From: an uncultured Bacilli bacterium
GTDB taxonomy: Bacteria; Bacillota_I; Bacilli_A; RF39; UBA660
Reading direction: 5' to 3'
Assembly (NCBI GenBank): GCA_944363735.1
Contig: CALVVB010000002.1
Location: forward strand, 16,349 to 80,348
DNA length: 64,000 bases
Position numbers and translations under genes: made by a program
Shown here: positions 12,435 through 50,903 of the stretch, in pieces
Position numbering within the stretch: the stretch's first letter is position 1
How the letters are laid out: each line of letters opens with the position of its first letter
Notes under the pieces: model-generated
Databases searched by the model: none
Seen by the model: only the letters and a program-made list of their open reading frames with translations
What the model was told of the DNA's origin: nothing

Positions 12435-12444
12435 AATTACACTC

Positions 12445-13770: not shown

Positions 13771-13774
13771 GCTA

Positions 13775-26297: not shown

Positions 26298-27186
26298 GGA
26301 TACCCCCTACTTTCGCAATAAATATTTCATTAAGTGTAGGTTCAACTACATCATATTTAGTAATATTACAGTTTTTAACTAATGAGAATATCTTAGGAGC
26401 GACTGTTTTATCTTCTATTTTTACTTCTATTTCTCCTCTTACTTTAGAAACATCTAATACCCCTTTTACTTTCTTTATTTTATCAAGAGGTAAATCATCT
26501 CCTCTTAACATAATATTTTTAATACCAAATTCTTCTTTAATATCTTTTAACATTCCACTTACTACAGGATGACCTTTTACAAGGATAACTAATTTCTCAC
26601 AAAAGTCTTCAATATATTCCATCTGATGTGATGAAAAGATAATAGATGTCCCTTCTTTTTGTAAATCATATATAGCATCTTTCATTAATTTAACATTAAT
26701 AGGATCAAGCCCTGTAAAGGGTTCATCTAATATTAATAGTTTAGGATGATTGATAATAGCAGAAATAAACTGTATTTTTTGTTGATTACCTTTAGATAAT
26801 TCTTTAATCTTTCTATTCTTATAACTAGAAATTTCAAACTTTTCTAACCATTTATCTATATCTTTTTCTATAGTTCTCTCATCAAGACCTTTTAATACTC
26901 CATAAAAGGTAAGTTGTTCTAAAACAGTAAGTTTAGTAAGTAAACTTCTCTCTTCTGTAACAAAACCTATTTTATCAGTTAAGTTATAGTCAATTCTTTT
27001 ACCATCAAGTAAAACTTCTCCTTTATTAGAATCAATTAAACCCATAATAATTCTAAAGGTAGTAGTTTTACCTGCTCCATTTTCTCCAAGTAACCCAAAT
27101 ATTTCTCCATCTTTAACAGTAAAGGACAGATCAGACACCGCTCTATTCTTACCATAATATTTTGTAATATGTTTAACTTCAAGCAT
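26290..27186 (-). CDS. ABC transporter ATP-binding protein (NatA-like)
   Basis: Walker A GENGAGKTT, signature LSKGNQQK and Walker B LLILDEP. Confidence 0.85.
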   Translation of the reverse strand: MLEVKHITKYYGKNRAVSDLSFTVKDGEIFGLLGENGAGKTTTFRIIMGLIDSNKGEVLLDGKRIDYNLTDKIGFVTEERSLLTKLTVLEQLTFYGVLKGLDERTIEKDIDKWLEKFEISSYKNRKIKELSKGNQQKIQFISAIINHPKLLILDEPFTGLDPINVKLMKDAIYDLQKEGTSIIFSSHQMEYIEDFCEKLVILVKGHPVVSGMLKDIKEEFGIKNIMLRGDDLPLDKIKKVKGVLDVSKVRGEIEVKIEDKTVAPKIFSLVKNCNITKYDVVEPTLNEIFIAKVGGIHE

Positions 27187-27203: not shown

Positions 27204-28091
27204 TTATATTTTCTTAACTAACTTTTTCTCTTCCTCAAGTTCAATATTATAACGATTAACTGCATCTTTCCAAGTTGGTAATAATTCAAAGTTCTCTTCT
27301 AATTTAGATTTATCAAGTCTAGAATTTCTAGGACGATAAGCTTGTTTAGCACCAGTAATTTCTAAATACTCTTCCGTTGTAACTTTATTTACTTTAACAC
27401 TCTTTTTATTAGATTCAAAAATATATTCTGCAAACTCAGCCCAACTACAATATTCACTATTAGTAACATTGTAAGTACCATATTTATCGCTATTAGACAT
27501 ATCTACTAAGATTTTAGCAAGATCAACTGTATATGTAGGACTACCTATCTGGTCATCTACAACATTTAATTCACTATGGTTCTCTGATAATTTTAACATT
27601 GTTTTTATAAAATTATGTCCATTAATTCCAAATACCCAAGATATTCTAGTAATAAAGTGTTTAGGATTACGTCTAACTTCTTCTTCTCCTAAAAATTTAG
27701 TTCTACCATAAACACTCTTAGGATTAACTTTATCTTCTTCAGTATATACTCCATCTTTAGTACCATCAAATACATAATCAGTTGACATATATATAGTAGT
27801 AGCATCTACTTCAATTGAAGCATCAACAATATTTTTAGTACCAACTACATTAACACTATAACAAGCATCTTCCATATCTTCTGCTTTATCAACTGCAGTC
27901 CATGCTGCACAATGAAAAATGACATTAGGAGCAAAATCTTTTACAACTCTATTTACTTCTTCTCTATTAGTAATATCCATTTCATCCTTATCAAGAGCAA
28001 GAATAGCATCTTCACTAACGCCTCTTTTTAATAATTCTCTTTTAACATCATAACCCAATTGTCCTTTATAACCTGTAATTAAATATTTCAT
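27204..28091 (-). CDS. rfbD: dTDP-4-dehydrorhamnose reductase
   Basis: 295 aa. ITGYKGQLG Rossmann motif, YGRTK catalytic motif, and position directly after rfbC. Confidence 0.85.
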   Translation of the reverse strand: MKYLITGYKGQLGYDVKRELLKRGVSEDAILALDKDEMDITNREEVNRVVKDFAPNVIFHCAAWTAVDKAEDMEDACYSVNVVGTKNIVDASIEVDATTIYMSTDYVFDGTKDGVYTEEDKVNPKSVYGRTKFLGEEEVRRNPKHFITRISWVFGINGHNFIKTMLKLSENHSELNVVDDQIGSPTYTVDLAKILVDMSNSDKYGTYNVTNSEYCSWAEFAEYIFESNKKSVKVNKVTTEEYLEITGAKQAYRPRNSRLDKSKLEENFELLPTWKDAVNRYNIELEEEKKLVKKI

Positions 28092-28663
28092 TATTTCCTC
28101 CTTAAAAATAGCACTTTAGATTCTTCTAATGTAGGATGCTTCCCATCTTTCTCAGATAAGATTGGCTCAGTTATATTATTTTCTTTGAACATCTCATCCC
28201 AATTAATATTAAGGCCTGGATCATTCCAAAGGATTCCTCCTTCTTTGTCAGGTGCATAATCATTATCAACTAGATATTGAAAAATTGTATCATCTTCTAA
28301 TGAAATAAATCCATGTGCAAAACCACGAGGTACAAATAATTGTCTATTATTATCTTCTGTTAGTTTAACAGCAGTATATTTTCCATAAGTATCTGAATCT
28401 TTTCTAATATCAACAACTACATCAATAGCAGAACCTTTAATAACCTCAACTATTTTAGCTTGACACTTTGGATCTTCTTGGAAATGAAGTCCTCTAACTA
28501 CTCCTTTAGCACTTTTACTTCTGTTTGCTTGTTTTACACCTTCAAAACCTAATTCTTTTAAATTAGCTTCTATATAATAAGGTGAAAAATATCCTCTTTC
28601 ATCTCCAAATTTATCTGGTTCTAAAATATAACAATCTAATAAATTAGTTTCAATTTTTTTCAT
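28091..28663 (-). CDS. rfbC: dTDP-4-dehydrorhamnose 3,5-epimerase
   Basis: FGDERGYF...RGLHFQ...VPRGFAHGF cupin motifs. ATG 28663 follows GGAGGAG; the track start at 28681 lies inside that RBS. Confidence 0.9.
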   Translation of the reverse strand: MKKIETNLLDCYILEPDKFGDERGYFSPYYIEANLKELGFEGVKQANRSKSAKGVVRGLHFQEDPKCQAKIVEVIKGSAIDVVVDIRKDSDTYGKYTAVKLTEDNNRQLFVPRGFAHGFISLEDDTIFQYLVDNDYAPDKEGGILWNDPGLNINWDEMFKENNITEPILSEKDGKHPTLEESKVLFLRRK

Positions 28664-28664
28664 A

Positions 28665-29540
28665 TTATCTCTCCTCCACAATTTCCATTAAATGTTTCCC
28701 ATAAGTATTCTTTTTCATTAATTTAGCAGCTTCTAGTACTTTTTCTTTACTTAACCACCCATTTTTATAAGCTATTTCTTCTGGACAGCATATAGTAATA
28801 TTTTGATGTTCCTGAATAGTTGCAACAAAATTAGTAGCATCAAATAAGCTTTTGAATGTTCCTGTATCAAACCATCCATAACCTTCATTTAAGGTTATAA
28901 CGTTTAATTTAGCATCTTTTAAATATCCTTTATTTAAATCAGTTATTTCTAACTCTCCTCTTTTAGAAGGCTTTAATTTGGACGCCTTATCAACAACAGA
29001 ATTATCATAGAAATAAAGTCCTGTAATTGCATAATTACTCTTAGGATTATCTGGTTTTTCCTCTACGCTTAATACCTTACCATTTTTATCAAATTCAACT
29101 ACCCCAAAACGTTCAGGATCATGAACATGATAACCAAAAACAGTAGCTTTACCTTTACTAGCATCTTCTTTAGCTTTTAATAATTCACCTCTTATATTAG
29201 GACCATAGAAAATATTATCACCAAGTACCATACAGCAAGTATCATTGCCAATAAATTCTTTTCCTAAAATAAAAGCTTGAGCAAGACCATCAGGACTAGG
29301 TTGTTCTTTATAAGAAAAATTAACTCCAAACTTAGAACCATCACCTAATAATTCCATAAATCTAGGTAAATCTTTAGGAGTTGATATTATTAAAATATCT
29401 CTAATCTCTGCTTGCATTAATACTGACAAAGGATAATAAATCATTGGTTTATCATAAATAGGCATCAACTGCTTACTTGTAACTTCTGTCAATGGATATA
29501 GTCTAGTTCCACTACCTCCTGCTAAAATAATTCCTTTCAT
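28665..29540 (-). CDS. rfbA: glucose-1-phosphate thymidylyltransferase
   Basis: [29 protein letters not shown] and LGDNIF are canonical RmlA motifs. Confidence 0.93.
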
Positions 29541-35520: not shown

Positions 35521-37455
35521 CTATTTTTTCTTATCTAATTTCCATACTCTTATTAAAAATTTATATCTTTTTTCTATTTCAGATTGTTGTTTTTTAGAAA
35601 ATTTATACATAGTTCCTATTTCTTTATGAACCTTTTTTATTTCGTTCAACTGAGCTTGTTTTTTATTCAAACTAGTAACATTATTACCATGAACACGATA
35701 AAAATTATAAGGCTTATTTATAAAAGATATCTTACCTTCTCTCATAACATTAACATAAAATAACCAATCTCCAGCTTGTTTATATTTACCTGACTTAGTA
35801 AAATACTTTTTATAATTTCCATTTTTAAAAATAACAGAAGAAACATTAGCAATAGTACAATTCAAATAAGCATATTTTTTTATTTCATCTTCACCATTTT
35901 CAACAAAGTCATGATCCCAATGACCTGATTTTAATATGTCTATTTCAGGTTTTATAGAAGGAAGAATTATCTTACCAAATTTATCTATAAAAGCTGTATC
36001 AGCATATGATATAACTATAGAATCATCTTCTTTAATTGGTTTTAAAACAGATTTTAAAAATTGTTTTTGACAAAAATCATCTGCTTCTGCAATCCATACA
36101 TAATCACCTGTAGCATTTTCAAAACCTTTCTCCCATTGTTTAAAAGCTGAACCACTATTAACATCATTATAAATTTTTTTAATATTAATATATTCTTTAA
36201 GCTTATCAACAAGATCATCTATAACTTCTCTACTATTATCTTTAGAACAATCATCCAAAATTATTAACTCATCTATTTTTTCAGTCTGATATAAAATACT
36301 ATAAATTCTCTGATACATAAAATCAGCATAATTATAGTTTGGTATTACTACAGAAACAGTTTTACCACTTCCTTTTTTGTTACTTTGTTTTTCTGCCAAA
36401 GAAATAAGCTTATCTATAGTTATATCAGAAGGAATAACTGATTTAACTATATTTCTAGAATAAAACTTATAAAAAGATATCATAATATTTGCTAAAAAAG
36501 AAAAGCCATTATCATTAAATTTTAAGTAAAGTTTATAATAATATTTATGTTTAGTCCCCTGAGTTTCTAAAAAGTTCCAAAAATAATGATTTTGTCTTAT
36601 TTTATATTTAGCACTTCTCTTATATAATTCTTTTAAGAATTTATAACGCTTAATAAACCTATCTTCTTTAGGTGGAATATATAAATAAAACATAATAACT
36701 TGTTGATATATAATTATATCAAAATACTTTTTATATCCTTTTATTTTATTGATACGCTCCTCTAAAATATCAAGTGCTTTAAAAATATCAAATCTTTTAA
36801 AGCTTAAAGTATCATTCTGTGTAGATTTTTGTCTTTGAATATAATTATAATAAGTATCACCAGTATAAGCTATTTTTTTTGCATTTATTATAGCAGCTAA
36901 TACAGTAGCAACATCTTCATTCATTATCCCAGTTGGAAATGGAAACTTTTCTAATAACTCTTTTCTAAATAACTTATTACAAGGTGAAGCTGCATGACCT
37001 TGATTTAAGATATTTTCTTTTGTAACTCTTCCTTCACATTCAACTGCCCTTACATCTGTTTGATTTTCAAAAGATGAATCATACTTTATAAAGATATCAC
37101 ATACTACAACATCAGCTTTTTCTTTAGTAATAGTTTTATATAATTCTTCATAAAAATTATCTTCTAAATAATCATCAGAATCAATAAAAGATATTAAATC
37201 ATATTTAGCTTCTTTTAAAGCAATATTTCTATTATAACCAGCACCATGATTTTCCTTATTTTTAATTAGTTTTATATAAGGACATTTTTTCATATAACGA
37301 TTAATAATAGAAACTGTTTTATCAGTAGAACAATCATCAACTAAGATAATTTCAAACTTTTCTAAGTTTTGATTCAAAATAGAATCTAAGCATTTTTCTA
37401 TATATAATTCTGTATTATAACATGGTATTATAATTGATATTCCTTCTTTTTTCAT
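35521..37455 (-). CDS. bifunctional glycosyltransferase with two GT2 domains
   Basis: 644 aa. Domain 1 has ISIIIPCYN...VDDCSTD...SDDY. Domain 2 has VSVVIPNYN...LDDCSKD...EADD. Confidence 0.85.
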   Translation of the reverse strand: MKKEGISIIIPCYNTELYIEKCLDSILNQNLEKFEIILVDDCSTDKTVSIINRYMKKCPYIKLIKNKENHGAGYNRNIALKEAKYDLISFIDSDDYLEDNFYEELYKTITKEKADVVVCDIFIKYDSSFENQTDVRAVECEGRVTKENILNQGHAASPCNKLFRKELLEKFPFPTGIMNEDVATVLAAIINAKKIAYTGDTYYNYIQRQKSTQNDTLSFKRFDIFKALDILEERINKIKGYKKYFDIIIYQQVIMFYLYIPPKEDRFIKRYKFLKELYKRSAKYKIRQNHYFWNFLETQGTKHKYYYKLYLKFNDNGFSFLANIMISFYKFYSRNIVKSVIPSDITIDKLISLAEKQSNKKGSGKTVSVVIPNYNYADFMYQRIYSILYQTEKIDELIILDDCSKDNSREVIDDLVDKLKEYINIKKIYNDVNSGSAFKQWEKGFENATGDYVWIAEADDFCQKQFLKSVLKPIKEDDSIVISYADTAFIDKFGKIILPSIKPEIDILKSGHWDHDFVENGEDEIKKYAYLNCTIANVSSVIFKNGNYKKYFTKSGKYKQAGDWLFYVNVMREGKISFINKPYNFYRVHGNNVTSLNKKQAQLNEIKKVHKEIGTMYKFSKKQQSEIEKRYKFLIRVWKLDKKK

Positions 37456-37465
37456 AATGTACTCC

Positions 37466-38341
37466 TTATATTTTTTTATTTTTAATCATAACTTCTTTTA
37501 ATAGTTTTAATGATTTTAAGATATTACTTTCTCTAAAAATTAATTTTCTATATAAATCATCATTATAATCATTGTTAAGAGAAGACCCTTCTTTATGAAA
37601 TATTTCTATATTAGGATCATAAATAAATTTTAAATTATCTTTTCTTCTACGATAATTTAAAAACTCTTCTTCATGATAAAGAAATGTACGAGAATAAAAG
37701 CAATCTTTATATTTATCATAATATCTTTTAGAAAAGATAATTGCACACCCATGAAGGGCTACATCTTCTAAAAAACAATCAGCATTTTCCAAATGACTAG
37801 GTTTCTTTATAAGTCTTTTTATTTTAAAATAAGTTCTTAGTAAAAACCTTTTAAACTTACTATTATAAATTCCTAACAACATTTCTGACTTATCAATCGC
37901 TTTATTTACTTTATCTAAAGTATCATAAACTGGAAAAGGATTTACTGAATCTCCTTCATTAGTTAGAATTTTAAATCCTAATGCATCAAAAGAATGCTCT
38001 TTATAAATATTTTGTATTCTCTTTAATAAATCTTTTTGAGTTAATAAAGTATCATTATTAATAACAATCATAAAATCAGGCTGATACTTTTCTCTTGCTA
38101 AGTCTATTCCCTTATTATTACCTTTAGCAAAACCAATATTTTCTTCTAAAATTATTAGATCATCTACTAAAGTCTTTAACTTTCTATCATCTTCTTCTAC
38201 ACCACTATTATTATCTACAACAATAATTTTATAGTTCTTATCTTCAAGAGTTCTAATTGAATTTATACACTCTATCGTATCATTAATATTCTTATAATGC
38301 AAAATTATAAATACTGCTTCTACTCTTTCCTTTTTTTTCAT
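37466..38341 (-). CDS. GT2 family glycosyltransferase (rhamnosyltransferase-like)
   Basis: AVFIILHYKN...VVDNNS...GFAKGNN...INNDT pattern. ATG 38341 follows GAGGAA. Confidence 0.7.
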   Translation of the reverse strand: MKKKERVEAVFIILHYKNINDTIECINSIRTLEDKNYKIIVVDNNSGVEEDDRKLKTLVDDLIILEENIGFAKGNNKGIDLAREKYQPDFMIVINNDTLLTQKDLLKRIQNIYKEHSFDALGFKILTNEGDSVNPFPVYDTLDKVNKAIDKSEMLLGIYNSKFKRFLLRTYFKIKRLIKKPSHLENADCFLEDVALHGCAIIFSKRYYDKYKDCFYSRTFLYHEEEFLNYRRRKDNLKFIYDPNIEIFHKEGSSLNNDYNDDLYRKLIFRESNILKSLKLLKEVMIKNKKI

Positions 38342-38342
38342 C

Positions 38343-39128
38343 TTATAATTCCTCAGCAAATCTTTTTTCTATTTTTTTGAATATTTGGTAACCTATAATA
38401 AGTATTGCAAAACTGATAATTCCTACTATAGCAAGTATAGAAAAATCTGGTAATACTTGATAATAGAATATATCTCTATATGCATTAATAATGTGTGCCA
38501 TTGGGTTAATATTCATAATCCATTCAAAAGCTGTATTTGCAAACAATTCACTAGAATATAAGATAGGTGTAGCATAAAATAACATCATAACAATAAAATT
38601 AACTATATATTCAATATCTCTAATATAAACATTTATAGCACTTAAGATAAATATAATACCTAAGGATAAAATATATTGAATAAGAGTAATTAATGGTAAG
38701 AGTAACATAACAAGTGATAAATTCATTCCACCAAAAATAATAAATATTAAAATAATAATACAAGAAATAAAGAAATTAATTAAACCACTAGTAACTACCG
38801 ATATTGGTAATATTTCTCTAGGAAAATAAACTTTCTTTATTATATTACCATTATTAACTATAGTAGTAGTTCCCTGATTAACTACAGTAGTAAAAAAGTT
38901 CCAAGGAATAATTCCTACTATAAGAAATATAACATAATTAGGTTCTGAACTTTTTAAAATTAATGGAAAAACTATTGCGTATACTAAAACCATTAATAAT
39001 GGATTAATAAAAGACCATAAAACACCTAGAAAAGATCCTTTATATTTACCACGTATTTCCTTTCTGACATTTGTCTTTAAAAGTTCACGATATTGATATA
39101 AATCTTTAAAAATCTTCATTATAATCAC
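38343..39128 (-). CDS. polysaccharide ABC exporter permease (Wzm/TagG/RfbA type, ABC-2)
   Basis: 261 aa with 6 TM helices. LYQYRELLKTNVRKEIRGKYKGSFLGVLWSFINP is the typical N-terminal motif. Confidence 0.85.
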   Translation of the reverse strand: MIIMKIFKDLYQYRELLKTNVRKEIRGKYKGSFLGVLWSFINPLLMVLVYAIVFPLILKSSEPNYVIFLIVGIIPWNFFTTVVNQGTTTIVNNGNIIKKVYFPREILPISVVTSGLINFFISCIIILIFIIFGGMNLSLVMLLLPLITLIQYILSLGIIFILSAINVYIRDIEYIVNFIVMMLFYATPILYSSELFANTAFEWIMNINPMAHIINAYRDIFYYQVLPDFSILAIVGIISFAILIIGYQIFKKIEKRFAEEL

Positions 39129-39875
39129 CTACTGACATATTTTTAAGTATTCCTCTACCACTTTATTTGGCTCATCATCCATTTTAACTTTTCCTTCATA
39201 AATCCATACCGCTCTAGTACACATTTTTTTTACAGCATTTAAATCATGAGTAACAATAACAATTGTTTTATCACTTTTCTTAAGTTCATCTAACTTAGCA
39301 AAACATTTTTCTTGAAAATGTTGATCTCCTACAGCCAAAATCTCATCTACTAATAAAATATCTGCATCAACATTAATAGCAATAGAAAAAGCAAGTCTCA
39401 TATACATTCCAGAAGAATAAGTACGTACTGGGCTATCAATAAAATTATCTAGTTCAGAGAATGAAATAATATCATCCAATCTTTTATCTATTTCAGATTT
39501 TGACAATCCAAAAATAGAAGCATTGAAATAAATATTTTCCCTTCCTGTGAAATCAGGATGAAACCCAGCTCCTAATTCCAAAAGAGATGTTAGTTTTCCA
39601 TTAGTAACAATTGTCCCCTTATTAGGATAAATAATCTTAGTCATTAACTTTAAAAGTGTAGATTTACCACTACCATTAGTACCAACTAAAGCAACAGTTT
39701 CTCCTTTTTTTATATCAAGATTAATATTTTCTAAAACTATCCTATTCTCTGCCTTATTACGAGTAATATTAACAAGCCTTTCTTTTAACGTATTTGGTTT
39801 ATCATAATATAGTTTAAAATACTTTGTAACATTTTTTACTCTTATAGCAAATTCACTATCTTTTTTAGCCATCAA
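39129..39875 (-). CDS. polysaccharide ABC exporter ATP-binding protein (Wzt/TagH/RfbB type)
   Basis: Walker A GTNGSGKST, signature YSSGMYMRLAF and Walker B ILLVDEILAVGD. Confidence 0.88.
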   Translation of the reverse strand: MMAKKDSEFAIRVKNVTKYFKLYYDKPNTLKERLVNITRNKAENRIVLENINLDIKKGETVALVGTNGSGKSTLLKLMTKIIYPNKGTIVTNGKLTSLLELGAGFHPDFTGRENIYFNASIFGLSKSEIDKRLDDIISFSELDNFIDSPVRTYSSGMYMRLAFSIAINVDADILLVDEILAVGDQHFQEKCFAKLDELKKSDKTIVIVTHDLNAVKKMCTRAVWIYEGKVKMDDEPNKVVEEYLKICQ

Positions 39876-39902: not shown

Positions 39903-42668
39903 TCACATTTTATTTTTTTTTGCATCTTTCTTATCAAAAGGTAAATCACAAATTGCCTTTGATAATGTATTAATATTAGCATAACCATATTTTTCATCAG
40001 GTTCTAAATAAGTACCCTCAGCCCACTCATTCCAAGCATTAACAAAAATAAATCTATGCTCTTCATCATTTCTTCTTCTAGTTTCTCTTATAATTATTTT
40101 TAACCACTTATAATAACTTTCTAATGAATAATTATAATAAATAGTATAACCATCTGTCCTTCTTGCAGAATTATCCCATCCCATTGTTATAGAATAATAA
40201 AATGGTTTAAGTGGAAAATGTTCTTTATATAGATGTTCAATATCATCTACTATTTTTTTATAATTAAATATCTTAGGTGAACTTAAACCTGTTAATTTTG
40301 TAGCAGGATGCCCTACACCATGAGGTGGAAAATCAAAAGAAGCATCAGTATATTCAGTATATTTATAATTAGTATCAGCAAGTTCACATTTATCCATAAT
40401 ATAAAGCTCACCAATTCCCTCTTCAATAGCATATTCTCTCCACTTAGTTACTAATTCTTTAAAATTAGGAATAGCACTAGGATTATAAATCATTATTACT
40501 GGCTTTCCATCTATTTTGATATAACGATCATCTAAAAGATATTTTTTTATATCTTTTATAAATTTTCTATAATCATCTTTTTTATAATCTTGTTTAATTA
40601 GTACATCATCTTCAAGTCCATCCCAAGTTCTCGTCCAATTCTCATTAGCCCAACAAAAGAAAAAAGGAAAATCGATACTCTTATCTTTAAAAAACAAATC
40701 TATAGGTTTTTCCATTAATCTTTTACCAGAAAACCAATAATAATAGAAAATAAAACCATATATTTTATGTTCTTTCGCTAACTTAACTTGTTTTTTTATT
40801 GTTTCAACATTATCTAATGTATAGTAGCCAAAATCTTTATGAGGAGTTCTAGGTTGATAATGTCCCTCAAATCTAGGTTTAGCTTTCTTAGTATTAACCC
40901 ACTCTGTAAAACCTTTACCCCACCATAAATCATTTTCTTTAAAGGTATGATATTGTGGTAAATAAAAAGCCAAAGTTTTAATATCAGTATTATACTTAGA
41001 AAAATCAATATTATCTTGATAAGTACTTATATATGGTGCATATTCTTTATATGAATGAGTAATAACTTTAGGTTCTTCTTTTTCCTGCACATCATTCTTT
41101 GGTTCAACTATTTCTTTTTTCCCAATTGACTTTAACTTTCTAAGAGGACTAGTTAATTTCCAACTTGAACTATTAAGTACTTTATTTAATTCATCTTGAT
41201 AAAAATTTTTATTTTCCAACAAACACTTATTTTCATTTTTTAATAACTCATTACTATTATCTAACTCATTAATTTTTTTATTTAACTCTACAATAAGTTT
41301 TCTATAATCATATGAAGTCATTTTATAACTATTTATATCTTTCATTTTCTTTAATATTCCTTTTATAGTATTATCATAATTTTTATTTATTTTATTATCT
41401 TTATTAGAAAAAAGATTTGATTTATCAATATGTCTTTTTTCTAATATATAATCTAGCCTATCTTTTACATCTAAAGATAGAAGCTCTTGATAACTCATAT
41501 CTAAAGATTTTAAAATATATTCAAGATTTCTATTATATATTTCTATCGGATGAGGATTAGTTAATCTCCAACTTACATATTCAACATCTTGTGTTAATTC
41601 TTCCGGAGTAAACCACGCAAAGAGCAGAAAATTCAATTTCTTTACACTCATTACTTCTTCTTCTAAATAATCTAATGAACTTTCTTCACCAAAAGATGAA
41701 GGCATGCATGAAGAAAGAGAAATAATTGTTTTTCCTAAAAAAGCAGCTTCAAAAGAAACATTTGAAAGATCAGCAACAATACGTCTACACTTTAAAATCC
41801 AATCAAATGAAGTTGATGAATCATCCTTAATAAAACCTAACGTTGAAAGATCAACAGGCTCCTTAGGATGAGGACGAATACATATTTTATCAGGAGAAGC
41901 TAAATGACTAATCGCTTCTAATATATCACTCTGAGTCCATTTAGAATAAACAGTTGCAAAACAATCAGTAGCAACTCCCATACCATAACCAACCTCATAA
42001 AGTGGAGGGATATCTATATCATTCAAATAATGAATATTTTGTTTATCTACTAAGAGAGCAAAAAGTTCTTTTCTACTTAAACACAATACTTTTTCTGATT
42101 CACAAAATAAAGAATATTGCTCTTTTAAATTACTCGTATCATACTTATTCTGAAACTGAAAATAATTTAATAACCGATTATAAAATGGTGTTCTAATCGC
42201 ACTAGCTTCTTGATTAATCAAAGTAATATTATGCTTTTTTGCAATATAATCAATACTAGGCAAATAAGTCCATACCATAAATGCATCTATTTTTTCATAT
42301 TTAGATTCAAGATAATTAATCGCTTTTTCTAATATTTTCTCTAACTCTTTATCTCTTTCTTTAAGTAAATGAACCCATGCATCCACATTATTAGAATATT
42401 GTTCCAAAATTTTCTTCTTTTCTTCATCAGTAATAACATATTTTTTCAAATCATCAAAAGAATTGTCATTAATACCATAATAATCCATTACAATAGTAGC
42501 AGAATGTTTACATTCTCTATAATAAGAAGGCTTTTTAAAATATTCTTCAGTAGCAATAATAGGACTATCACCATCTAAAGAAAAACGAGCAAATTTATAG
42601 AAAACCCATAAATACGCTGGTTTCTCTTTAATATATTCTTCACTCTCAAAAATAATAGGTACAATCAC
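39903..42668 (-). CDS. large fusion protein: N-terminal GT-B-like (capsule KpsC/KpsS- or TagF-like) domain, coiled coil, C-terminal WbsX (GH99-like) domain
   Basis: 921 aa. The C-terminal part, LAFYLPQYHTFKENDLWWGKGFTEWVNTKKAKPRFEGHYQPRTPH...VNAWNEWAEGTYLEPD, matches the WbsX family. The N-terminal part has IRPHPKEP ... IVADLSNVSFEAAFLGKTIISL. The middle is helical (NELLKNENKCLLENKNFYQDELNK). Confidence 0.65.
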   Translation of the reverse strand: MIVPIIFESEEYIKEKPAYLWVFYKFARFSLDGDSPIIATEEYFKKPSYYRECKHSATIVMDYYGINDNSFDDLKKYVITDEEKKKILEQYSNNVDAWVHLLKERDKELEKILEKAINYLESKYEKIDAFMVWTYLPSIDYIAKKHNITLINQEASAIRTPFYNRLLNYFQFQNKYDTSNLKEQYSLFCESEKVLCLSRKELFALLVDKQNIHYLNDIDIPPLYEVGYGMGVATDCFATVYSKWTQSDILEAISHLASPDKICIRPHPKEPVDLSTLGFIKDDSSTSFDWILKCRRIVADLSNVSFEAAFLGKTIISLSSCMPSSFGEESSLDYLEEEVMSVKKLNFLLFAWFTPEELTQDVEYVSWRLTNPHPIEIYNRNLEYILKSLDMSYQELLSLDVKDRLDYILEKRHIDKSNLFSNKDNKINKNYDNTIKGILKKMKDINSYKMTSYDYRKLIVELNKKINELDNSNELLKNENKCLLENKNFYQDELNKVLNSSSWKLTSPLRKLKSIGKKEIVEPKNDVQEKEEPKVITHSYKEYAPYISTYQDNIDFSKYNTDIKTLAFYLPQYHTFKENDLWWGKGFTEWVNTKKAKPRFEGHYQPRTPHKDFGYYTLDNVETIKKQVKLAKEHKIYGFIFYYYWFSGKRLMEKPIDLFFKDKSIDFPFFFCWANENWTRTWDGLEDDVLIKQDYKKDDYRKFIKDIKKYLLDDRYIKIDGKPVIMIYNPSAIPNFKELVTKWREYAIEEGIGELYIMDKCELADTNYKYTEYTDASFDFPPHGVGHPATKLTGLSSPKIFNYKKIVDDIEHLYKEHFPLKPFYYSITMGWDNSARRTDGYTIYYNYSLESYYKWLKIIIRETRRRNDEEHRFIFVNAWNEWAEGTYLEPDEKYGYANINTLSKAICDLPFDKKDAKKNKM

Positions 42669-42701
42669 TTTATATACACCTCCACTTAAGAAATATCAAT
42701 T

Positions 42702-43451
42702 TTACCAATGATAACATGATAAATGTTTTTCTTTAACAATAGCACGAATATGTTCTAAATCTTTAGGGGTATCAACAGATAAACTTTCACTTTCTACTTC
42801 AACCATCTTTATTTTTTCACCATTTTCAAGAAAACGAATTTCATTAACATCCTCAACAATCTCATAAGGACCTTTTTTAGTACTAGCAAAAAAATCTAAA
42901 GCTTTTTTATTATATATTAATACACCAACATGCTTATAATAATCATAATCCATACTTCCCTTTGGATAAGGAATAGGACTTCTTGAAAAGAACATAGCAT
43001 AAGACAATTTATCAAATACAACCTTAATATTCGTAAAATCAACAGCTTCTACTGGATTTTTTATCTTAGTCATTAAATTAGCAACATAAACTTTGTTACT
43101 ATCTGGAAGAGACTCAGGAATTATCTTCTCAATCATTTTAGGATTAATTAAAGGTTCATCTCCATTAATAACAAGATATAAATCTGCCTTAACAGTTTCT
43201 GATACTTCCTGTACTCTTTCTGTGCTAGTAGGATGTGTATTTTTAGTTAATATAACTTTAATATTTTTCTCTTTACATACTTTTTCAATTCTCTCATCAT
43301 CTGTTGCAACATAAACATCATCAAGTCCTCTAACTTGTTTTACCTGACCATAAACCCACGCTACCATAGGCTCATCTTCAATTAATTCTAAAGGCTTACC
43401 TTTAAAGCGTGAAGATTGATAACGTGCTGGAATAACTGCCACTACTCTCAT
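42702..43451 (-). CDS. KdsB-family cytidylyltransferase (CMP-Kdo synthetase-like)
   Basis: MRVVAVIPARYQSSRFKGKPL...PMVAWVY...VATDDERI...INGDEPLI tracks the motifs of E. coli KdsB closely (from memory). Confidence 0.8.
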   Translation of the reverse strand: MRVVAVIPARYQSSRFKGKPLELIEDEPMVAWVYGQVKQVRGLDDVYVATDDERIEKVCKEKNIKVILTKNTHPTSTERVQEVSETVKADLYLVINGDEPLINPKMIEKIIPESLPDSNKVYVANLMTKIKNPVEAVDFTNIKVVFDKLSYAMFFSRSPIPYPKGSMDYDYYKHVGVLIYNKKALDFFASTKKGPYEIVEDVNEIRFLENGEKIKMVEVESESLSVDTPKDLEHIRAIVKEKHLSCYHW

Positions 43452-43465
43452 ACTTTCTCTTCCTC

Positions 43466-45073
43466 CTAATCAATATTTTTAGATGGGGTCAATGTTTTAA
43501 TTAACATCTTCTCTTGATATTTCTTTATATTTCTTTCCATCGTTGAATTTAAATTATCAATATAATTCTTATCAAGTAAATAAGCAATATCACTTTGATA
43601 AAAATTTTCTTCCATACAAGAAGTAAAACCATCAAAGCCTGCTAAAACAACATTTTTAACATTTGCATGACTTAAAATATTCAAACAAACTAATAGAGCT
43701 GAATCAGAAACTCCATCAAGTTTAGACAATGAATTTCTATAATCAAAAATAAGAGTGTTTTCATTATCTTCAATACTAATATTAGAAGTAATCATTTTAA
43801 TATCATCAGGAGTTAAATCATCACAAGATTCCTGATATCTTTTTCTATTACTATAAAACACTGCATTATGCTTATGTAGATTAGGATTATTAATAGTAAT
43901 AACGAAACAATTAGAATTATCTATATAATTATCCAACTGTTCTTGATAAGTTATAATACTCTTACCAGGACCAATCAAAATAACTTCTTTTTCTTTAACT
44001 AAATCAGATAACCTTTCATAAGAAGCATCATCTAAATATGTATGATCATTATAAATTTGATATAGTTCCTCAATATAAGCGAAATCATATTCTGTCTTTT
44101 TCTGTTCACTAATCATCTGAACAACTTTATGAATATCACTACTATTAAGCATTCTCTTATTTAATAAATATAAGATATATGATGGATGGCAAGCATAGAT
44201 AGCAGATAAATAATACGGTAAAGAATAACCCCAGGGATTTTCACTTTTAATTTTTTCTAAAATATTATCTGAAGCTTCTAATAATGGTGATAATGAATAA
44301 TTTTTTCCTTCTTTTTCATTTAAATAATTGGCAATAAGCTCAGTAGGTAAATTACCAGCTCCTCTTCCCATTCCATAAATAGAACTATCAATAACTATAT
44401 TTCTATCTTCAGAAGTATTTTCTATAAAAGCAAGAGCATTTGCAAAAGCCATTTGTAAATTATTATGTACATGAAATGCTAATTTAGTTTCAGCTTTTAA
44501 ATTTTCATCAAATAACTTTGATAAATAAATAACATCTTGTGGTGTCATTTGCCCAAAAGTATCTACAATTGCTAATCCTTCTAAATCAAGTTCTTCATTA
44601 CAAATACGAATCATTTCTCTAATCTCTTCTTCAGTATACCCCAATATAACTGTAGGTTGCAAAAACAAACGATATCCTTTTCTTCTAATTTCCTTAGCAT
44701 ATTCAATTGCCTTTGGTAAACTTTTCTTATGAAAAGACATTCTTAATATATTATCACTATTACTGCATAAAGGTAAATTTTCAATATTATATTTTTCCCC
44801 TAATAACATTAATGTATATTGATTTTCCTCAGTATTAGCAATTAAATTCTGTTCTTCTAACTCTTCCATTCTTCTATATTCAGTTCTATCAACAGAGTAT
44901 TCTTCTTTAGTATCCATTAAATAACCACATTCTATTAACTCAATCTTTGCCTCTTCTAGATAATTTATTAATTGTTTAATATCGTCATAACCAAACTCAT
45001 TATCATTAACATAGCCACCATCCCTTAAAGTACAATCTAATATCTCTATTTTTCTCATTTTAAACTTCCTCAC
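43466..45073 (-). CDS. HMGL-like (DRE-TIM) aldolase domain fused to a C-terminal Rossmann-like domain (DUF115/Maf/MptE-like)
   Basis: 535 aa. The N-terminus IEILDCTLRDGGYVNDNEF...LIECGY and HVHNNLQMAFANA are HMGL-like metal-binding motifs. The C-terminal VILIGPGKSI...VITINN...VVLAGFDGF resembles the GxGPS / GxD pattern of DUF115. Confidence 0.6.
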   Translation of the reverse strand: MRKFKMRKIEILDCTLRDGGYVNDNEFGYDDIKQLINYLEEAKIELIECGYLMDTKEEYSVDRTEYRRMEELEEQNLIANTEENQYTLMLLGEKYNIENLPLCSNSDNILRMSFHKKSLPKAIEYAKEIRRKGYRLFLQPTVILGYTEEEIREMIRICNEELDLEGLAIVDTFGQMTPQDVIYLSKLFDENLKAETKLAFHVHNNLQMAFANALAFIENTSEDRNIVIDSSIYGMGRGAGNLPTELIANYLNEKEGKNYSLSPLLEASDNILEKIKSENPWGYSLPYYLSAIYACHPSYILYLLNKRMLNSSDIHKVVQMISEQKKTEYDFAYIEELYQIYNDHTYLDDASYERLSDLVKEKEVILIGPGKSIITYQEQLDNYIDNSNCFVITINNPNLHKHNAVFYSNRKRYQESCDDLTPDDIKMITSNISIEDNENTLIFDYRNSLSKLDGVSDSALLVCLNILSHANVKNVVLAGFDGFTSCMEENFYQSDIAYLLDKNYIDNLNSTMERNIKKYQEKMLIKTLTPSKNID

Positions 45074-45078
45074 TACTT

Positions 45079-47316
45079 TTAATAATAAAATATATTTAAA
45101 TCAACATTACCAGTAATACCAGGGAGACTACCAGAAGAAGTATATTGCCATCCTCTATGTGGTAAAGTATATCCACAATCTCCGTTAGTATAATGTGCTA
45201 TCCAATCAACCATACTTCTTGTATTATCATTAAATCTTGTCATTGCATAATTTAAATAAGTATAAACTTTAGCATCATAACCTGCTGCTTTAAGACGATT
45301 AATATAATTATAAACCATCCCTTCATAAGCTTCCTTAGATATATCATCAGAACTTTCATTTTGACTTGGAATACTATAACTCTCAATATCATAATAAATT
45401 GGATAATCTGGACTAACATTATATCTATTAAGCATTTGAATCGTAGCATTAGCTTCAAAAATAGCTTCAGCAGGATTATGAGCATAACTATATAAATAAA
45501 CACCATAAGGAATATTTAAACGTTTTACATTACTTAAATATTCAGAAAATTTTATATCTTCATAACCATTATAACCAATTCTTAAAATAACTCCATCAAT
45601 TTCTCCAGAATTCCACAAAGTATCCCAATCAATATTTCCTTGATGATAAGATACATCTGCTAATCTTTTAAAGTTCTGTTCACGTAAAACTCCATCCTGA
45701 TTAAAGCGATACCAAACACCATGAATTTTTTGAACTCCAGTTGCCATACTACCATCATAATTGTAATAATATGTATTACCATTTATAGTTTGAAAACCAG
45801 TTTGAATAACACCGTTTTCATCAAATTTATAAACACGACCATCAATTGTCTGAATACCTGTTTGAATGATACCTTCTTGATTAGTATAATATATATATCC
45901 TGTTAATGAATGTACCCAACCAATTTGAATTTTTCCAGAAAGCTCACCTAAAAAATATCTTTGACCATCTATTGACGTAATACCTTTCAATATTTTTCCA
46001 TCTTGATCAGTATAGTAACGATCTCCCGTTAAGGCAGAGGTTACAAAGCCTACTTGAACTTTTCCTGTATACTCTCCTAAGAAGTAATCTTCCCCATCTA
46101 TTTCTGTAATTCCATATTGCTTTACACCCAAAATATAATAATAACGATCTAATCCTATATCATAAAATCCTTCAATTAAACTTCCATCTTCTAAAGTATT
46201 ATAAGTATTACCGTCATATTCAAATTCACCTTTATAAATTTTTCCATCTTCATCTGCATAATAATACTTATTATTTAAACTTGATTGAACAAATCCAGTC
46301 TGAATTTTTCCTGTATACTCTCCTAAAAAGTAATCTTCTCCATCTATCGGAGTAATACCTTTCAATATTTTTCCATCTTGATCAGTATAGTAACGATCTC
46401 CCGTTAAGGCAGAGGTTACAAAGCCTACTTGAACTTTTCCTGTATACTCTCCTAAGAAGTAATCTTCCCCATCTATTTCTGTAATTCCATATTGCTTTAC
46501 ACCCAAAATATAATAATAACGATCTAATCCTATATCATAAAATCCTTCAATTAAACTTCCATCTTCTAAAGTATTATAAGTATTACCGTCATATTCAAAT
46601 TCACCTTTATAAATTTTTCCATCTTCATCTGCATAATAATACTTATTATTTAAACTTGATTGAACAAATCCAGTCTGAATTTTTCCTGTATACTCTCCTA
46701 AAAAGTAATCTTCTCCATCTATTGGCGTAATACCTTTCAATATTTTTCCATCTTGATTAGTATAGTAACGATCTCCCGTTAATGAAGAAGTTACAAAACC
46801 TACTTGAACTTTTCCTGTATACTCTCCTAAGAAATAATCTTCTCCATCTATTTCTGTAATACCTTTAACTAATTTACCATCAGAATCAAAATAATAAGTC
46901 GCTCCATCAATAGAAACAAATCCCTTTTGTATTTTTCCATCCTGATTAGTATAATACACATCTCCTGTTAACGAAGAAGTTACAAAACCTACTTGAACCT
47001 TTCCTGTATACTCTCCTAAGAAATAGTCTTCTCCATCTATTGGAGTAATACCTTTCAATATTTTTCCATCTTGATCAGTATAATAACGATCTCCTGTTAA
47101 TGAAGAAGTTACAAAACCTATTTGAACTTTTCCTGTATACTCTCCTAAGAAGTAATCTTCTCCATCTATTTCTGTGATACCTTTTTGTATTATTCCGTCC
47201 TTATAATAATAAAGTGAACCATCTTCTTCAAAAAAACCAGTTTTACCTAAAGCATTAACATTTAAAAACACCAAACTAATTGCAACTAAAACAACAAAAA
47301 ATATCTTTTTTTTCAT
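45079..47316 (-). CDS. secreted cell-wall-binding-repeat protein with C-terminal GH25 muramidase
   Basis: 745 aa. Signal peptide and about 25 repeats of roughly 20 aa of the GxxYYxDxDGKxxKG type (CW_binding_1). The C-terminal ADVSYHQGNIDWDTLWNSGEIDGVILRIGYNG... is GH25-like. Confidence 0.85.
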   Translation of the reverse strand: MKKKIFFVVLVAISLVFLNVNALGKTGFFEEDGSLYYYKDGIIQKGITEIDGEDYFLGEYTGKVQIGFVTSSLTGDRYYTDQDGKILKGITPIDGEDYFLGEYTGKVQVGFVTSSLTGDVYYTNQDGKIQKGFVSIDGATYYFDSDGKLVKGITEIDGEDYFLGEYTGKVQVGFVTSSLTGDRYYTNQDGKILKGITPIDGEDYFLGEYTGKIQTGFVQSSLNNKYYYADEDGKIYKGEFEYDGNTYNTLEDGSLIEGFYDIGLDRYYYILGVKQYGITEIDGEDYFLGEYTGKVQVGFVTSALTGDRYYTDQDGKILKGITPIDGEDYFLGEYTGKIQTGFVQSSLNNKYYYADEDGKIYKGEFEYDGNTYNTLEDGSLIEGFYDIGLDRYYYILGVKQYGITEIDGEDYFLGEYTGKVQVGFVTSALTGDRYYTDQDGKILKGITSIDGQRYFLGELSGKIQIGWVHSLTGYIYYTNQEGIIQTGIQTIDGRVYKFDENGVIQTGFQTINGNTYYYNYDGSMATGVQKIHGVWYRFNQDGVLREQNFKRLADVSYHQGNIDWDTLWNSGEIDGVILRIGYNGYEDIKFSEYLSNVKRLNIPYGVYLYSYAHNPAEAIFEANATIQMLNRYNVSPDYPIYYDIESYSIPSQNESSDDISKEAYEGMVYNYINRLKAAGYDAKVYTYLNYAMTRFNDNTRSMVDWIAHYTNGDCGYTLPHRGWQYTSSGSLPGITGNVDLNIFYY
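45977..46726. repeat. tandem duplication, 2 x 375 bp, inside the CW-binding repeat region
   Basis: Read directly: 45977-46347 is base-for-base identical to 46352-46722 (offset 375 bp, 125 codons). Flanking repeat units are clearly more diverged. Confidence 0.9.
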
Positions 47317-49230: not shown

Positions 49231-49850
49231 CATCAAATCCGAATACTGAAAAAATGAATACTCCCCGCAGCAAGCTACGGGGTATCTTCCCAAAGCGATG
49301 TTATTTTTGCTGTTGAAATTTCAAATATAACTGCTTGTATTCCGCATCTTGTTTACCTTGATTTTTTACATATTCTTTTATTACCGATTCATTTTGATTT
49401 TTTCCTACTGTAGCCACAAAATAACCGTCTGACCAAAACTGTCCTCCCCATAGTTGTTTCTTTACTTGAGGACATTCGACAAAAATTTGTCTTGCTGTTA
49501 TACTTTTTATTATTTTCACTATTTTACTAGGTGCATAGTTTGGTGTGCTTTGAACTAGAAAATGTACATGATCTTTATCCGTACCTATTTCTAGAAAAAC
49601 AATATAATCATAACGTTTCTCTATCTCAAGACAAATTTGTCGAAGATGTTCATCCACTGTTTCATCAAATACTACACGACGGTATTTTGCTGGACATACA
49701 ATGTGGTAAACAAGATTGCTTACGTTGTGCGACAAATATAGATATTGACTATCTCCCATAACATCGCCCTCACTTCGTATTTATAATACTACGTTCGGCC
49801 TTACGTTGCAAGCAACGGGGAATTAAACCCTAGACTAATAACCATACACT
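49231..49850 (-). mobile_element. IS200/IS605-family insertion sequence (tnpA only); boundaries approximate
   Basis: A Y1 transposase ORF is flanked by similar subterminal hairpins, CCCCGCAGCAAGCTACGGGG (49263-49282) and CGTTGCAAGCAACGGGG (49804-49820). Homology to the paralogous SGNH leader stops near 49230. Confidence 0.7.
49301..49759 (-). CDS. tnpA: IS200/IS605 family Y1 transposase TnpA
   Basis: 152 aa. LVYHIVCPAKYRRVVF, the HUH motif DHVHFLV, and the catalytic-Tyr region SDGYFVATVG. Confidence 0.9.
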   Translation of the reverse strand: MGDSQYLYLSHNVSNLVYHIVCPAKYRRVVFDETVDEHLRQICLEIEKRYDYIVFLEIGTDKDHVHFLVQSTPNYAPSKIVKIIKSITARQIFVECPQVKKQLWGGQFWSDGYFVATVGKNQNESVIKEYVKNQGKQDAEYKQLYLKFQQQK

Positions 49851-49898: not shown

Positions 49899-50903
49899 TT
49901 AATCTTTATATGCTTCTTTATAAGCACCACTTTTTATATCATTAATCCATTCTTCATTATTTAAGTACCAATCTATTGTTTCTTTAATACCATCTTCAAA
50001 AGTATAAGTACGTTCCCATCCTAATTCATTTTCTACTTTGCTTGAATCTATTGCATATCTTAAATCATGACCTTTTCTATCTTCAACAAATGTTATTAAA
50101 TCTTCACTCTTACCCATTTGTTTTAATATTGTCTTAACGATATCTATATTATGTCTTTCAGCATGTCCACCTAAATTATATACTTCTCCAACTTTACCAT
50201 TTCTAACAATTAAATCAACACCAATATTATGATCATGTACATGAATCCAATCTCTTACATTTTCCCCAGTTCCATAAACAGGTACTTTTTCATTATTTAA
50301 TGCTTTAGATATAACAACTGGTATTAATTTTTCTGGAAATTGATATGGTCCATAATTATTAGAGCATCTACTAATAGTAACAGGTAATCCATAAGTACGA
50401 TGATATGCCATAACTAATAAATCTGCACTTGCTTTACTAGTAGAATAAGGACTAGATGTATGAAGTGGAGTATTTTCTGTAAATAGAAGATCTGGCCTAT
50501 CTAAAGGTAAATCTCCATATACTTCATCAGTTGAAATCTGATGATATCTTTTAACATTATATTTAAGTGATGCATCCATTAATACTTCAGTACCAATAAT
50601 ATTAGTGGTTAAAAATATTTCTGGATTTTTAATAGAATTATCAACATGAGACTCTGCTGCAAAATTAATTACAACATCAAACTTTTCATCACTAAATAGT
50701 TTATCGATAAAATTTCTATCAGTAATATCTCCTTTTACAAATTTATAATTATCTTTCTCCTCTAAATCTTTAATGTTATTATAATTACCAGCATAAGTTA
50801 GAGCATCTAAACAAACAAAATAATCATCTTTATATTTATCAGTAACGTAATGTAAATAATTACTTCCAATAAATCCTGCTCCTCCTGTAATTAAAAATTT
50901 CAT
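49899..50903 (-). CDS. rfbB: dTDP-glucose 4,6-dehydratase
   Basis: MKFLITGGAGFIGSN and YSTSKASADLL (YxxxK), with a length typical of RmlB. Confidence 0.92.
   Translation of the reverse strand: MKFLITGGAGFIGSNYLHYVTDKYKDDYFVCLDALTYAGNYNNIKDLEEKDNYKFVKGDITDRNFIDKLFSDEKFDVVINFAAESHVDNSIKNPEIFLTTNIIGTEVLMDASLKYNVKRYHQISTDEVYGDLPLDRPDLLFTENTPLHTSSPYSTSKASADLLVMAYHRTYGLPVTISRCSNNYGPYQFPEKLIPVVISKALNNEKVPVYGTGENVRDWIHVHDHNIGVDLIVRNGKVGEVYNLGGHAERHNIDIVKTILKQMGKSEDLITFVEDRKGHDLRYAIDSSKVENELGWERTYTFEDGIKETIDWYLNNEEWINDIKSGAYKEAYKD

Follow-up and report, generated by a model that had tools for sequence, protein, structure and literature searches.

We analysed a stretch of 64,000 nucleotides (hereafter the window) from an uncultured Bacilli bacterium (contig CALVVB010000002.1 of assembly GCA_944363735.1), in which three consecutive open reading frames (ORFs; 39903-45073, minus strand, spacers of 14 and 33 bp) encode a fusion enzyme that we call FUS, a cytidylyltransferase and a 921-aa glycosyltransferase (GT). 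We favour, with some reserve, the reading that this trio makes a 3-deoxy-2-ulosonic acid resembling 3-deoxy-D-manno-octulosonate (Kdo), activates it with cytidine monophosphate (CMP) and transfers it onto a rhamnose-rich wall polysaccharide by the mechanism proposed below. Gene context, natural gene fusions and family membership strongly support a CMP-ulosonic acid module that lacks KdsA, in which an HMGL-type aldolase would be the step forming the carbon-carbon bond. The trio and the parts of its products are the following.

43466..45058, minus strand: FUS, 530 aa, putative ulosonate(-phosphate) synthase (PF00682 match, ATG preceded by a Shine-Dalgarno sequence, AlphaFold2 model)
44054..45058, minus strand: N-terminal DRE-TIM (HMGL-like) aldolase domain of FUS, residues ~1-335 (relatives 3dxi and 1nvm)
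43469..44047, minus strand: C-terminal MptE/Maf-like domain of FUS, residues 338-530 (Foldseek, hhalign)
42702..43451, minus strand: KdsB-family cytidylyltransferase, 249 aa, putative CMP-ulosonate synthetase (PF02348, NCBIfam models, relative KpsU)
39903-42668, minus strand: GT99-WbsX protein, whole ORF of 921 aa
41484..42668, minus strand: GT99 module (WbbB-type retaining beta-ulosonic acid transferase), residues ~1-395 (PF21912, 5fa0)
41034..41483, minus strand: charged linker poor in Pro and Gly, residues ~396-545, ending in SSSWKLTSPLRKL (composition)
39903..41033, minus strand: WbsX (PF14307) module, residues ~546-921, putative second glycosyltransferase

An earlier note on this DNA described the first gene as an HMGL-like aldolase fusion, a description that held: PF00682 covers residues 8-263 of FUS (E 2.8e-20, 73.3 bits against a cut-off of 29), and some 195 further residues make up its C-terminal part. 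Its true start codon, the ATG at 45058, lies 8 nt past a GAGGAAG Shine-Dalgarno sequence and 20 nt past the stop codon of the GH25 gene upstream, and the exact 530-aa product is found on seven metagenome contigs with the same gene order. A GTG start at 45073 was rejected because the corresponding 535-aa form is not on record. Using a profile of 69 FUS homologues, we found that the best solved relative is 3dxi (E 5e-44), a structural-genomics entry of unassigned function deposited as the 'N-terminal domain of putative aldolase BVU_2661' of Bacteroides vulgatus. It was followed by DmpG-type 4-hydroxy-2-oxovalerate aldolases (1nvm, E 1e-23) and then by Claisen-type synthases at about 1e-10. The AlphaFold2 model of FUS (mean predicted local distance difference test score, pLDDT, 90.9) confirmed the DRE-TIM fold of the aldolase domain, with Foldseek matches to 3dxi, 4lrs and 1nvm. 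Residues R12-D13 and H196-x-H198 are invariant in the 69 homologues; they correspond to the R-D motif that follows strand 1 in DRE-TIM enzymes and to the metal-binding H-x-H motif. Judged from its sequence, FUS is a member of the DRE-TIM metallolyase superfamily. It scored far below the cut-off of the DmpG/BphI equivalog model TIGR03217 (77 against 286), had no Pfam match to the DmpG communication domain PF07836, and no acylating dehydrogenase gene adjoins it.

The weaker hidden Markov model matches to isopropylmalate, homocitrate and citramalate synthases, together with a GxGxxxGN motif common to FUS and those enzymes, could suggest that the HMGL-like domain is an acetyl-CoA-dependent Claisen synthase of that kind, with a non-carbohydrate hydroxy acid being CMP-activated and attached. 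We consider this very unlikely, since DmpG-type pyruvate aldolases match FUS better (85 against 52 bits; 1e-23 against 2e-10) and the transferases encoded downstream are of ulosonic acid types. Moreover, all characterised KdsB/NeuA-family enzymes, to our knowledge, activate the anomeric hydroxyl of 2-ulosonic acids.

FUS belongs to a large family that goes by the name 'aldolase catalytic domain-containing protein' in the sources, and no NCBIfam model (June 2026) above its cut-off names this type of enzyme. We counted at least 4742 homologues among 8000 scored candidates, nearly all of 520-545 aa, and at least 588 loci in GTDB with one genome per species. Carriers include Lachnospiraceae, Oscillospiraceae, Bacilli, Bacteroides, Fusobacterium, Treponema, Campylobacterota and Methanomassiliicoccales, and the closest genome record to the window is the metagenome-assembled genome (MAG) of an uncultured gut 'Bacilli bacterium' at 90% identity. 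Cultured bacteria that carry FUS include Clostridium leptum DSM 753, Flavonifractor sp. An82, Proteocatella sphenisci DSM 23131 and Eubacterium plexicaudatum ASF492. The rarity in Firmicutes that had been claimed for such modules is contradicted by these thousands of FUS homologues, most of them in gut Clostridia and Bacilli. For the comparison of gene order, we analysed 85 loci with their 10-kb flanks (numbered here with L), namely loci from the 80 best of the 588 matches (a single one for each GTDB species), four metagenome contigs and the window itself.

A cytidylyltransferase gene adjoins the FUS gene in 65 of the 85 loci, which come from several phyla, with a median gap of 12 bp, and it is of the KdsB type in 39. 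About 39% of the loci also have an adjoining HAD phosphatase gene, either of the HAD_2 type (23 loci) or of the KdsC type (10 loci; ~160 aa). Genes for the aldolase, KdsB and a KdsC-type protein occur together in relatives from the window's own clade at 75%, 53%, 51% and 47% identity. In the sister lineages L005-L010 and L012, a KdsC-family gene encoding 155-158 aa lies between or beside kdsB and the transferase gene, and the products in L005 and L008 reach 135 and 139 bits against the TIGR01670 cut-off of 107. Two natural fusions join these activities in single proteins: a 772-aa protein composed of HMGL, C-domain and CTP_transf_3 (L069:9989-12307, Sulfurovaceae MAG OY781042.1) and a 751-aa protein composed of HMGL, C-domain and HAD_2 (P0262). 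GT99, GT38/GT52 sialyltransferase-like and MptE/Maf-like proteins make up the remaining conserved neighbours; transferases of these types use CMP-ulosonic acids. By comparison, KdsA was found in none of the 85 loci including their flanks, NeuB in two of them and far from the FUS gene, and KpsF/KdsD-like proteins in two. Searching the window in all frames (tblastn) with E. coli KdsA, KdsC, KdsD, KpsF and NeuB gave no match, in agreement with the earlier note, which had reported the first three as missing.

The C-terminal ~195 residues of FUS had no Pfam match. The last 193 of them form a confidently modelled fold (pLDDT 90.9), for which the best Foldseek match was MptE of Methanocaldococcus jannaschii, an archaeal pyrophosphokinase (HPPK; 8sbu/8sd5, E 2e-4), at a template-modelling (TM) score of only 0.44-0.51. 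Alignment of this domain with the PF01973 (MptE/Maf-like) proteins of related loci using hhalign gave a probability of 93.8% and an E-value of 1.7e-7. A SIS/isomerase or plain Rossmann identity was rejected, as NanR and RpiR gave Foldseek E-values above 0.03 with TM below 0.3 and MptE matched better. A profile search of the domain against 1.84 billion representative sequences retrieved 1215 proteins. Among the 150 matches listed, the domain occupied residues ~330-535 of FUS-length proteins, while in shorter proteins, whose genes look 5'-truncated, it reached to the C-terminus or close to it; a few proteins had additional C-terminal domains. Based on these positions, the domain looks specific to the FUS enzyme family.

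The second protein of the trio matched PF02348 (E 4e-45) and scored above the cut-offs of two NCBIfam KdsB subfamily models (NF009905, 264.3 against 255; NF003952, 250.1 against 193), while falling just under that of the KdsB equivalog TIGR00466 (151.7 against 155.2). Its KdsB-like nature, previously proposed from the motifs VAVIPARYQSSRFKGKPL and NGDEPLI, both of which are present, is thus borne out, and we predict from this family membership that it is a CMP-ulosonate synthetase. Among solved structures, E. coli KpsU (1gq9; E 3e-48, 38% identity) is the best match. The window protein has all the CTP-binding and catalytic residues R10, R15, K19, D100 and D235 (E. coli numbering), and none of them varies among the 39 FUS-linked homologues. 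Q98 and Y185, the two residues that hydrogen-bond O5 of Kdo in KdsB (PMC12199768), occur in KpsU and in the KdsB enzymes of E. coli and Acinetobacter. In the window enzyme they are replaced by N and L, meaning that the Kdo-specific contacts of KdsB are not kept, and the LEQLR motif of KdsB reads VNEIR.

At the sugar-side positions, the 39 FUS-linked KdsB-type enzymes fall into at least five signature classes. The signature of the window enzyme, 'NHLNE', is found in 14 loci, including those of a Bacteroides and a Flavonifractor. We tried to identify the sugar from the co-variation of FUS clades and pocket signatures; it was only partial, with QQYEI tracking one clade and NHLNE, NYEDH and NFQDE occurring in two clades each, and gave no assignment. 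In the same set of loci, stand-alone PF01973 proteins of ~280 aa co-occur with the 'QQYEI' KdsB-like class (e.g. L013, L020, L046, L054, L065) and GT38/GT52-like proteins mainly with the 'NHLNE' class. The kind of transferase seems to follow the pocket type of the cytidylyltransferase.

The 921-aa protein had been compared with the KpsC/KpsS beta-Kdo transferases and with TagF. The motifs cited for that comparison are real, although they fit a different family. Of the four Pfam profiles that the earlier note had named for the trio, PF00682 and PF02348 matched as described above, whereas PF05159 and PF04464 gave no match at E <= 1e-3, and the KpsC/KpsS (GT107) and TagF identities were rejected on that basis. 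Searches of the window with E. coli KpsC found no match at E <= 1 (tblastn), and those with KpsS found only two weak matches (E 0.022 and 0.94), both outside the 921-aa gene. Residues 16-390 align with residues 16-382 of the WbbB GT99 module (5fa0, E 6e-15), and PF21912 matched with an E-value of 6e-20 (72.5 bits against a cut-off of 27). WbsX (PF14307) covers residues 566-901 (E 1.4e-116). From these profile matches, we identify the transferase as a protein that joins a WbbB-type GT99 module to a WbsX module. Its motifs RPHP and SNVSFEAAFLGK align with RAHP and SSVGLEAILTGK of WbbB. In WbbB, Glu158 is the base, Asp232 is the nucleophile, and Arg163 and His265 of the HP motif also have catalytic roles; the invariant Gln228 of its QxxxD motif binds the Kdo carboxylate and its acceptor is O3 of rhamnose (PMC9587256). 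Glu154, Arg159, Asp235 and His267-Pro268 of the window protein align with E158, R163, D232 and H265-P266. The GT99 and WbsX modules are separated by a linker of some 150 residues, of which 36-41% are charged and 1-7% are Pro or Gly. By analogy with the coiled-coil spacer of WbbB, which it resembles, it is probably a coiled coil.

Several observations weigh against our reading of the trio. In FUS, the residue that follows RDG-x is Tyr16, at a position where DmpG presumably has a catalytic His. Known DmpG/BphI-type aldolases use small aldehydes, and the thermodynamic commitment of a pyruvate aldolase is smaller than that of a synthase dependent on phosphoenolpyruvate (PEP). In the GT99 module, the window protein has Gly (GxxxD) at the position of WbbB Q228, as do all four Firmicute homologues included in the comparison; the alignment of this segment is moderately certain. 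The Wzt/TagH-like ATPase of the ATP-binding cassette (ABC) transporter encoded next to the trio has no carbohydrate-binding domain or extension, so that a coupling of capping and export in the WbbB/Wzt style of Klebsiella O12 is unsupported. The other points concern the phosphatase gene, the rest of the genome and the composition of the FUS family, and each of them bears on an alternative explanation.

Neither the window nor the 90%-identical L011 has a KdsC-type gene; a 33-bp spacer alone (42669-42701) lies between the cytidylyltransferase and transferase genes. The difference from the sister lineages corresponds to a clean loss in the window and L011 or to a gain in the sister lineages. With the KdsC-type gene present in relatives at 47-75% identity and an IS200-type transposase gene within the locus, the trio could be viewed as the decaying remnant of a pathway broken by loss of its phosphatase. 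This seems highly improbable to us, as the three ORFs are intact with their catalytic residues kept, the identical 530-aa protein occurs in the same order on seven independent metagenome contigs, and the arrangement is retained in the 90%-identical species. In addition, a linked phosphatase is present in only ~39% of the loci, which indicates that an unlinked one often suffices.

An unlinked kdsA elsewhere in the genome is possible, as our search of the organism spans the 64 kb of the window. Canonical KdsD, KdsA and KdsC might therefore supply ordinary Kdo while FUS does another job, such as making a side-group precursor or acting in catabolism. Two precedents speak for such an arrangement: the Gram-positive Bacillus coahuilensis m2-6 carries a complete canonical kdsA/B/C/D and kpsC island, showing that these genes can occur in Firmicutes (PMC4744853), and E. 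coli capsule loci hold only the duplicates kpsU and kpsF and depend on the chromosomal kdsA. We nevertheless judge it unlikely, given the tight FUS-cytidylyltransferase linkage across several phyla (65 of 85 loci, median gap 12 bp), the natural fusions of the aldolase to a cytidylyltransferase and to a HAD domain, the consistent absence of KdsA within 10 kb in the 85 loci, and the replacement of the Kdo O5 contacts Q98 and Y185.

The FUS family is also functionally mixed, with about 14 of the 85 loci pairing FUS with a thiamine diphosphate (ThDP) enzyme and nucleoside diphosphate (NDP)-sugar genes. In this sub-family (L051, L052, L062, L063, L068, L071, L075, L081, L088, L090 and others), the FUS gene is followed by one for an acetolactate-synthase-like ThDP enzyme of ~600 aa, in the surroundings of NDP-sugar nucleotidyltransferases, dehydratases/epimerases and a ~450-aa cytidylyltransferase. 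It looks like a different, likewise undescribed sugar pathway. Could FUS itself act on a nucleotide-linked sugar, held by the C-domain while the aldolase adds a C3 unit from pyruvate to give a higher-carbon or branched sugar? The MptE/Maf-like nucleotide-binding fold of the C-domain, the linkage of the 14-locus sub-family to genes for ThDP enzymes, for nucleotidyltransferases of NDP-sugars and for 4,6-dehydratases/epimerases, and the fact that the window locus also makes deoxythymidine diphosphate (dTDP)-sugars are consistent with it. We find this distinctly unlikely, as the partners in the window's own clade are of KdsB and KdsC types, which act on free ulosonates and omega-phosphates, and the HAD fusion suggests that the intermediate is a phosphorylated small molecule.

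Returning to the trio as a CMP-ulosonic acid module, we propose the following route. First, the DRE-TIM domain would form a metal-stabilised pyruvate enolate and add it to an aldose omega-phosphate, giving a 3-deoxy-2-ulosonate omega-phosphate and replacing the PEP-dependent KdsA. A HAD phosphatase, of the KdsC family in the closest relatives, would then strip the phosphate; in this bacterium an unlinked phosphatase would act, none being encoded in the window. Third, the KdsB-family enzyme would produce the CMP-beta-ulosonate. Finally, the GT99 module, in which the catalytic residues are conserved, would transfer the sugar with retention through a covalent intermediate on Asp235, the acceptor probably being a rhamnose in the rhamnan chain under elongation. 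On the model of WbbB, the sugar may cap the non-reducing end and stop the chain from growing, with the coiled-coil linker and WbsX supplying a second activity, before export of the polymer by Wzm/Wzt and its attachment to peptidoglycan by a LytR-CpsA-Psr (LCP) enzyme. The C-domain may contribute through nucleotide binding, either as a kinase supplying the acceptor or as a sensor for feedback by the CMP-sugar. The logic of such a pathway is known from the Kdo, Kdn (2-keto-3-deoxy-D-glycero-D-galacto-nononic acid) and sialic acid routes; the superfamily of the synthase and its fused domain are new. We found no publication on an HMGL/DRE-TIM-type ulosonate synthase route in a literature search whose topics included 3dxi/BVU_2661, Kdo in Firmicute wall polymers and WbsX; the relevant papers were those on GT99, on KdsB structure and on the B. 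coahuilensis island.

The idea that the aldolase offers an alternative route to an ulosonic acid had been put forward before, and gene context, fusions and families agree with it, except that the free aldose envisaged as acceptor does not: because of the KdsC-family and HAD neighbours and the aldolase-HAD fusion, the intermediate is likely phosphorylated and the pathway probably starts from an aldose phosphate. Likewise, the proposal of a Kdo-type sugar stands as far as Kdo-like, but the sugar is probably not Kdo itself, since N and L replace Q98 and Y185 in the cytidylyltransferase and Gly replaces WbbB Q228 in the GT99 module. As a speculation, it could be 5-epi-Kdo (3-deoxy-D-altro-octulosonate), made directly from ribose-5-phosphate, which would fit both the lack of an arabinose-5-phosphate isomerase match in the window and the loss of the O5-reading residues of KdsB. 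Erythrose-4-phosphate, glyceraldehyde-3-phosphate and hexose-6-phosphates are equally open as acceptors. Taking the elements together, one may imagine, though with considerable doubt about the whole, that FUS founds a new class of ulosonic acid synthases, built from a DRE-TIM pyruvate aldolase and a catalytic or regulatory MptE-like domain, and yields a hitherto undescribed acidic sugar instead of Kdo, with 5-epi-Kdo as the candidate. In that combined view, a WbbB-like GT99 terminator would add this sugar as a non-reducing-end cap that sets the chain length of a Gram-positive wall rhamnan, and the several pocket signatures of the cytidylyltransferases would reflect a whole family of such sugars on the surfaces of gut commensals.

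The window has a G+C content of ~27%, with nearly all genes on the minus strand. Besides the trio, the genes that define the locus are listed here.

38343..39875, minus strand: Wzt/TagH-like ABC ATPase (248 aa) and Wzm-like ABC-2 permease (profile matches)
35521..38359, minus strand: two GT2 glycosyltransferases, one of 297 aa and one of 644 aa with two domains, presumed to polymerise the rhamnan (Pfam, NCBIfam)
27204..29540, minus strand: rmlA, rmlC and rmlD (dTDP-L-rhamnose synthesis)
49301-49759, minus strand: IS200/IS605-type Y1 transposase gene, between rmlB and the block formed by the acyltransferase gene, the GH25 gene and the trio
49899..50903, minus strand: rmlB-type dTDP-glucose 4,6-dehydratase gene, beyond the IS200-type transposase gene, upstream of the trio

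Downstream of the trio are also genes for a CHIM/PMT-like membrane protein, a PgfS-like GT2 and an O-antigen-ligase-like protein. This is a monoderm-type, ABC-transporter-dependent rhamnan locus, in which rmlB lies ~20 kb away from rmlACD. A region of the rhamnan operon (32807-35511, minus strand) encodes a 390-aa ORF without family match and a 517-aa membrane protein (precomputed match to PF27792 CHIM_prot, weak PMT_2), both kept in L001, L002 and L008. Directly after rmlD, a second ABC exporter (24981-27186, minus strand) consists of a DrrA-like ATPase with a C-terminal domain and an ABC2_membrane_3 permease, and is distinct from the Wzm/Wzt pair beside the trio. An unusual LCP protein (15751-17811, plus strand), which carries a PASTA domain at its C-terminus and a region weakly similar to periplasmic phosphonate-binding proteins, is the likely ligase joining the polymer to peptidoglycan. 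We also noted a block of secreted proteins (10721-15592, minus strand) that includes a NAGPA phosphodiester glycosidase domain, a cadherin-like domain and a protein of 605 aa whose last domain is a type I dockerin. A dockerin would not be expected in the gut MAG of a low-GC 'Bacilli' member.

Upstream of the trio are the GH25 and acyltransferase genes. Between 38500 and 49263, the minus strand showed no terminator-like site; a GC-rich, terminator-like hairpin lies at 49282-49263, after the IS200-type transposase gene. Promoter-like matches did not exceed those of shuffled sequences (81 sites against 83.6 expected). As there is no terminator-like site and promoter matches stay at shuffle level, the trio, which the earlier note had placed at the promoter-proximal end of the operon, may share a transcript with these two upstream genes. 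The GH25 muramidase gene (45079-47316, minus strand; 20 nt upstream of FUS) has long, near-identical choline-binding/cell-wall-binding repeats, the number of which differs between strains, since the protein has 745 aa in the window and 428 aa in the metagenome contig L001.

If our reading of the trio is correct, a very common enzyme lacking annotation is the missing synthase of a CMP-ulosonic acid route independent of KdsA and NeuB. Many gut commensals would then bear acidic, sialic-acid-like surface sugars overlooked by current annotation, and such sugars matter for immune recognition, phage receptors and lectin binding. FUS would also provide a new biocatalyst for 3-deoxy-2-ulosonic acids. 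Moreover, chain termination by a 'terminal cap', as in O-antigens, would extend to Gram-positive rhamnose wall polysaccharides, for which length control is poorly understood.

Compared with characterised enzymes, FUS resembles the DmpG/BphI aldolases, whose chemistry is a pyruvate-enolate aldol reaction, and 3dxi, a true member of the FUS family, by its DRE-TIM fold and its R-D and H-x-H metal/enolate motifs. It differs from DmpG/BphI by the lack of a communication domain and of a partner dehydrogenase, by its fused MptE-like domain and by its biosynthetic context in glycan loci. The proposed pathway is like the Kdo pathway (KdsD, KdsA, KdsC and KdsB; KpsF and KpsU for the E. coli group 2 capsule) in having a synthase acting on a sugar phosphate, a KdsC-family phosphatase (in the sister loci), then a KdsB-family CMP-transferase and a retaining beta-transferase. 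Unlike in that Gram-negative pathway, KdsD and KdsA, the latter a PEP-dependent TIM barrel of the DAHP-synthase type, would be replaced by a DRE-TIM metallolyase with an MptE-like domain, in an organism of monoderm type. The 9-phosphate routes to Kdn and sialic acid (e.g. Kdn in Bacteroides thetaiotaomicron) use a NeuB-type synthase on mannose-6-phosphate or N-acetylmannosamine-6-phosphate, a HAD phosphatase and a CMP-synthetase. Here too, a synthase, a KdsC-like phosphatase and a CMP-transferase are encoded together, and the KdsC-like proteins of the sister loci reach 117 bits on the Kdn-9-phosphate phosphatase model, under its cut-off of 180; the synthase is NeuB rather than DRE-TIM and the cytidylyltransferase is of the NeuA rather than the KdsB type. 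In B. coahuilensis m2-6, a Kdo-type module in a Firmicute was likewise seen as unexpected, but its island has kdsA, kdsC, kdsD and kpsC, none of which is in the window locus (PMC4744853).

The closest parallel to the transferase gene is WbbB of Raoultella terrigena/Klebsiella O12, which combines a GT99 terminator, a coiled-coil ruler and polymerase modules (PMC9587256). The window protein differs in having WbsX as its C-terminal module instead of polymerase GTs and Gly in place of Q228, in the Wzt homologue of its locus, which has no cap-reading carbohydrate-binding domain, and in its product, which would be a Gram-positive wall polysaccharide. Both proteins share an N-terminal GT99 module with the Glu, Arg, Asp and HP residues, a long charged linker and then a further GT module, and both are encoded in an ABC-transporter-dependent locus for a rhamnose-containing polymer, rhamnose being the acceptor of WbbB.

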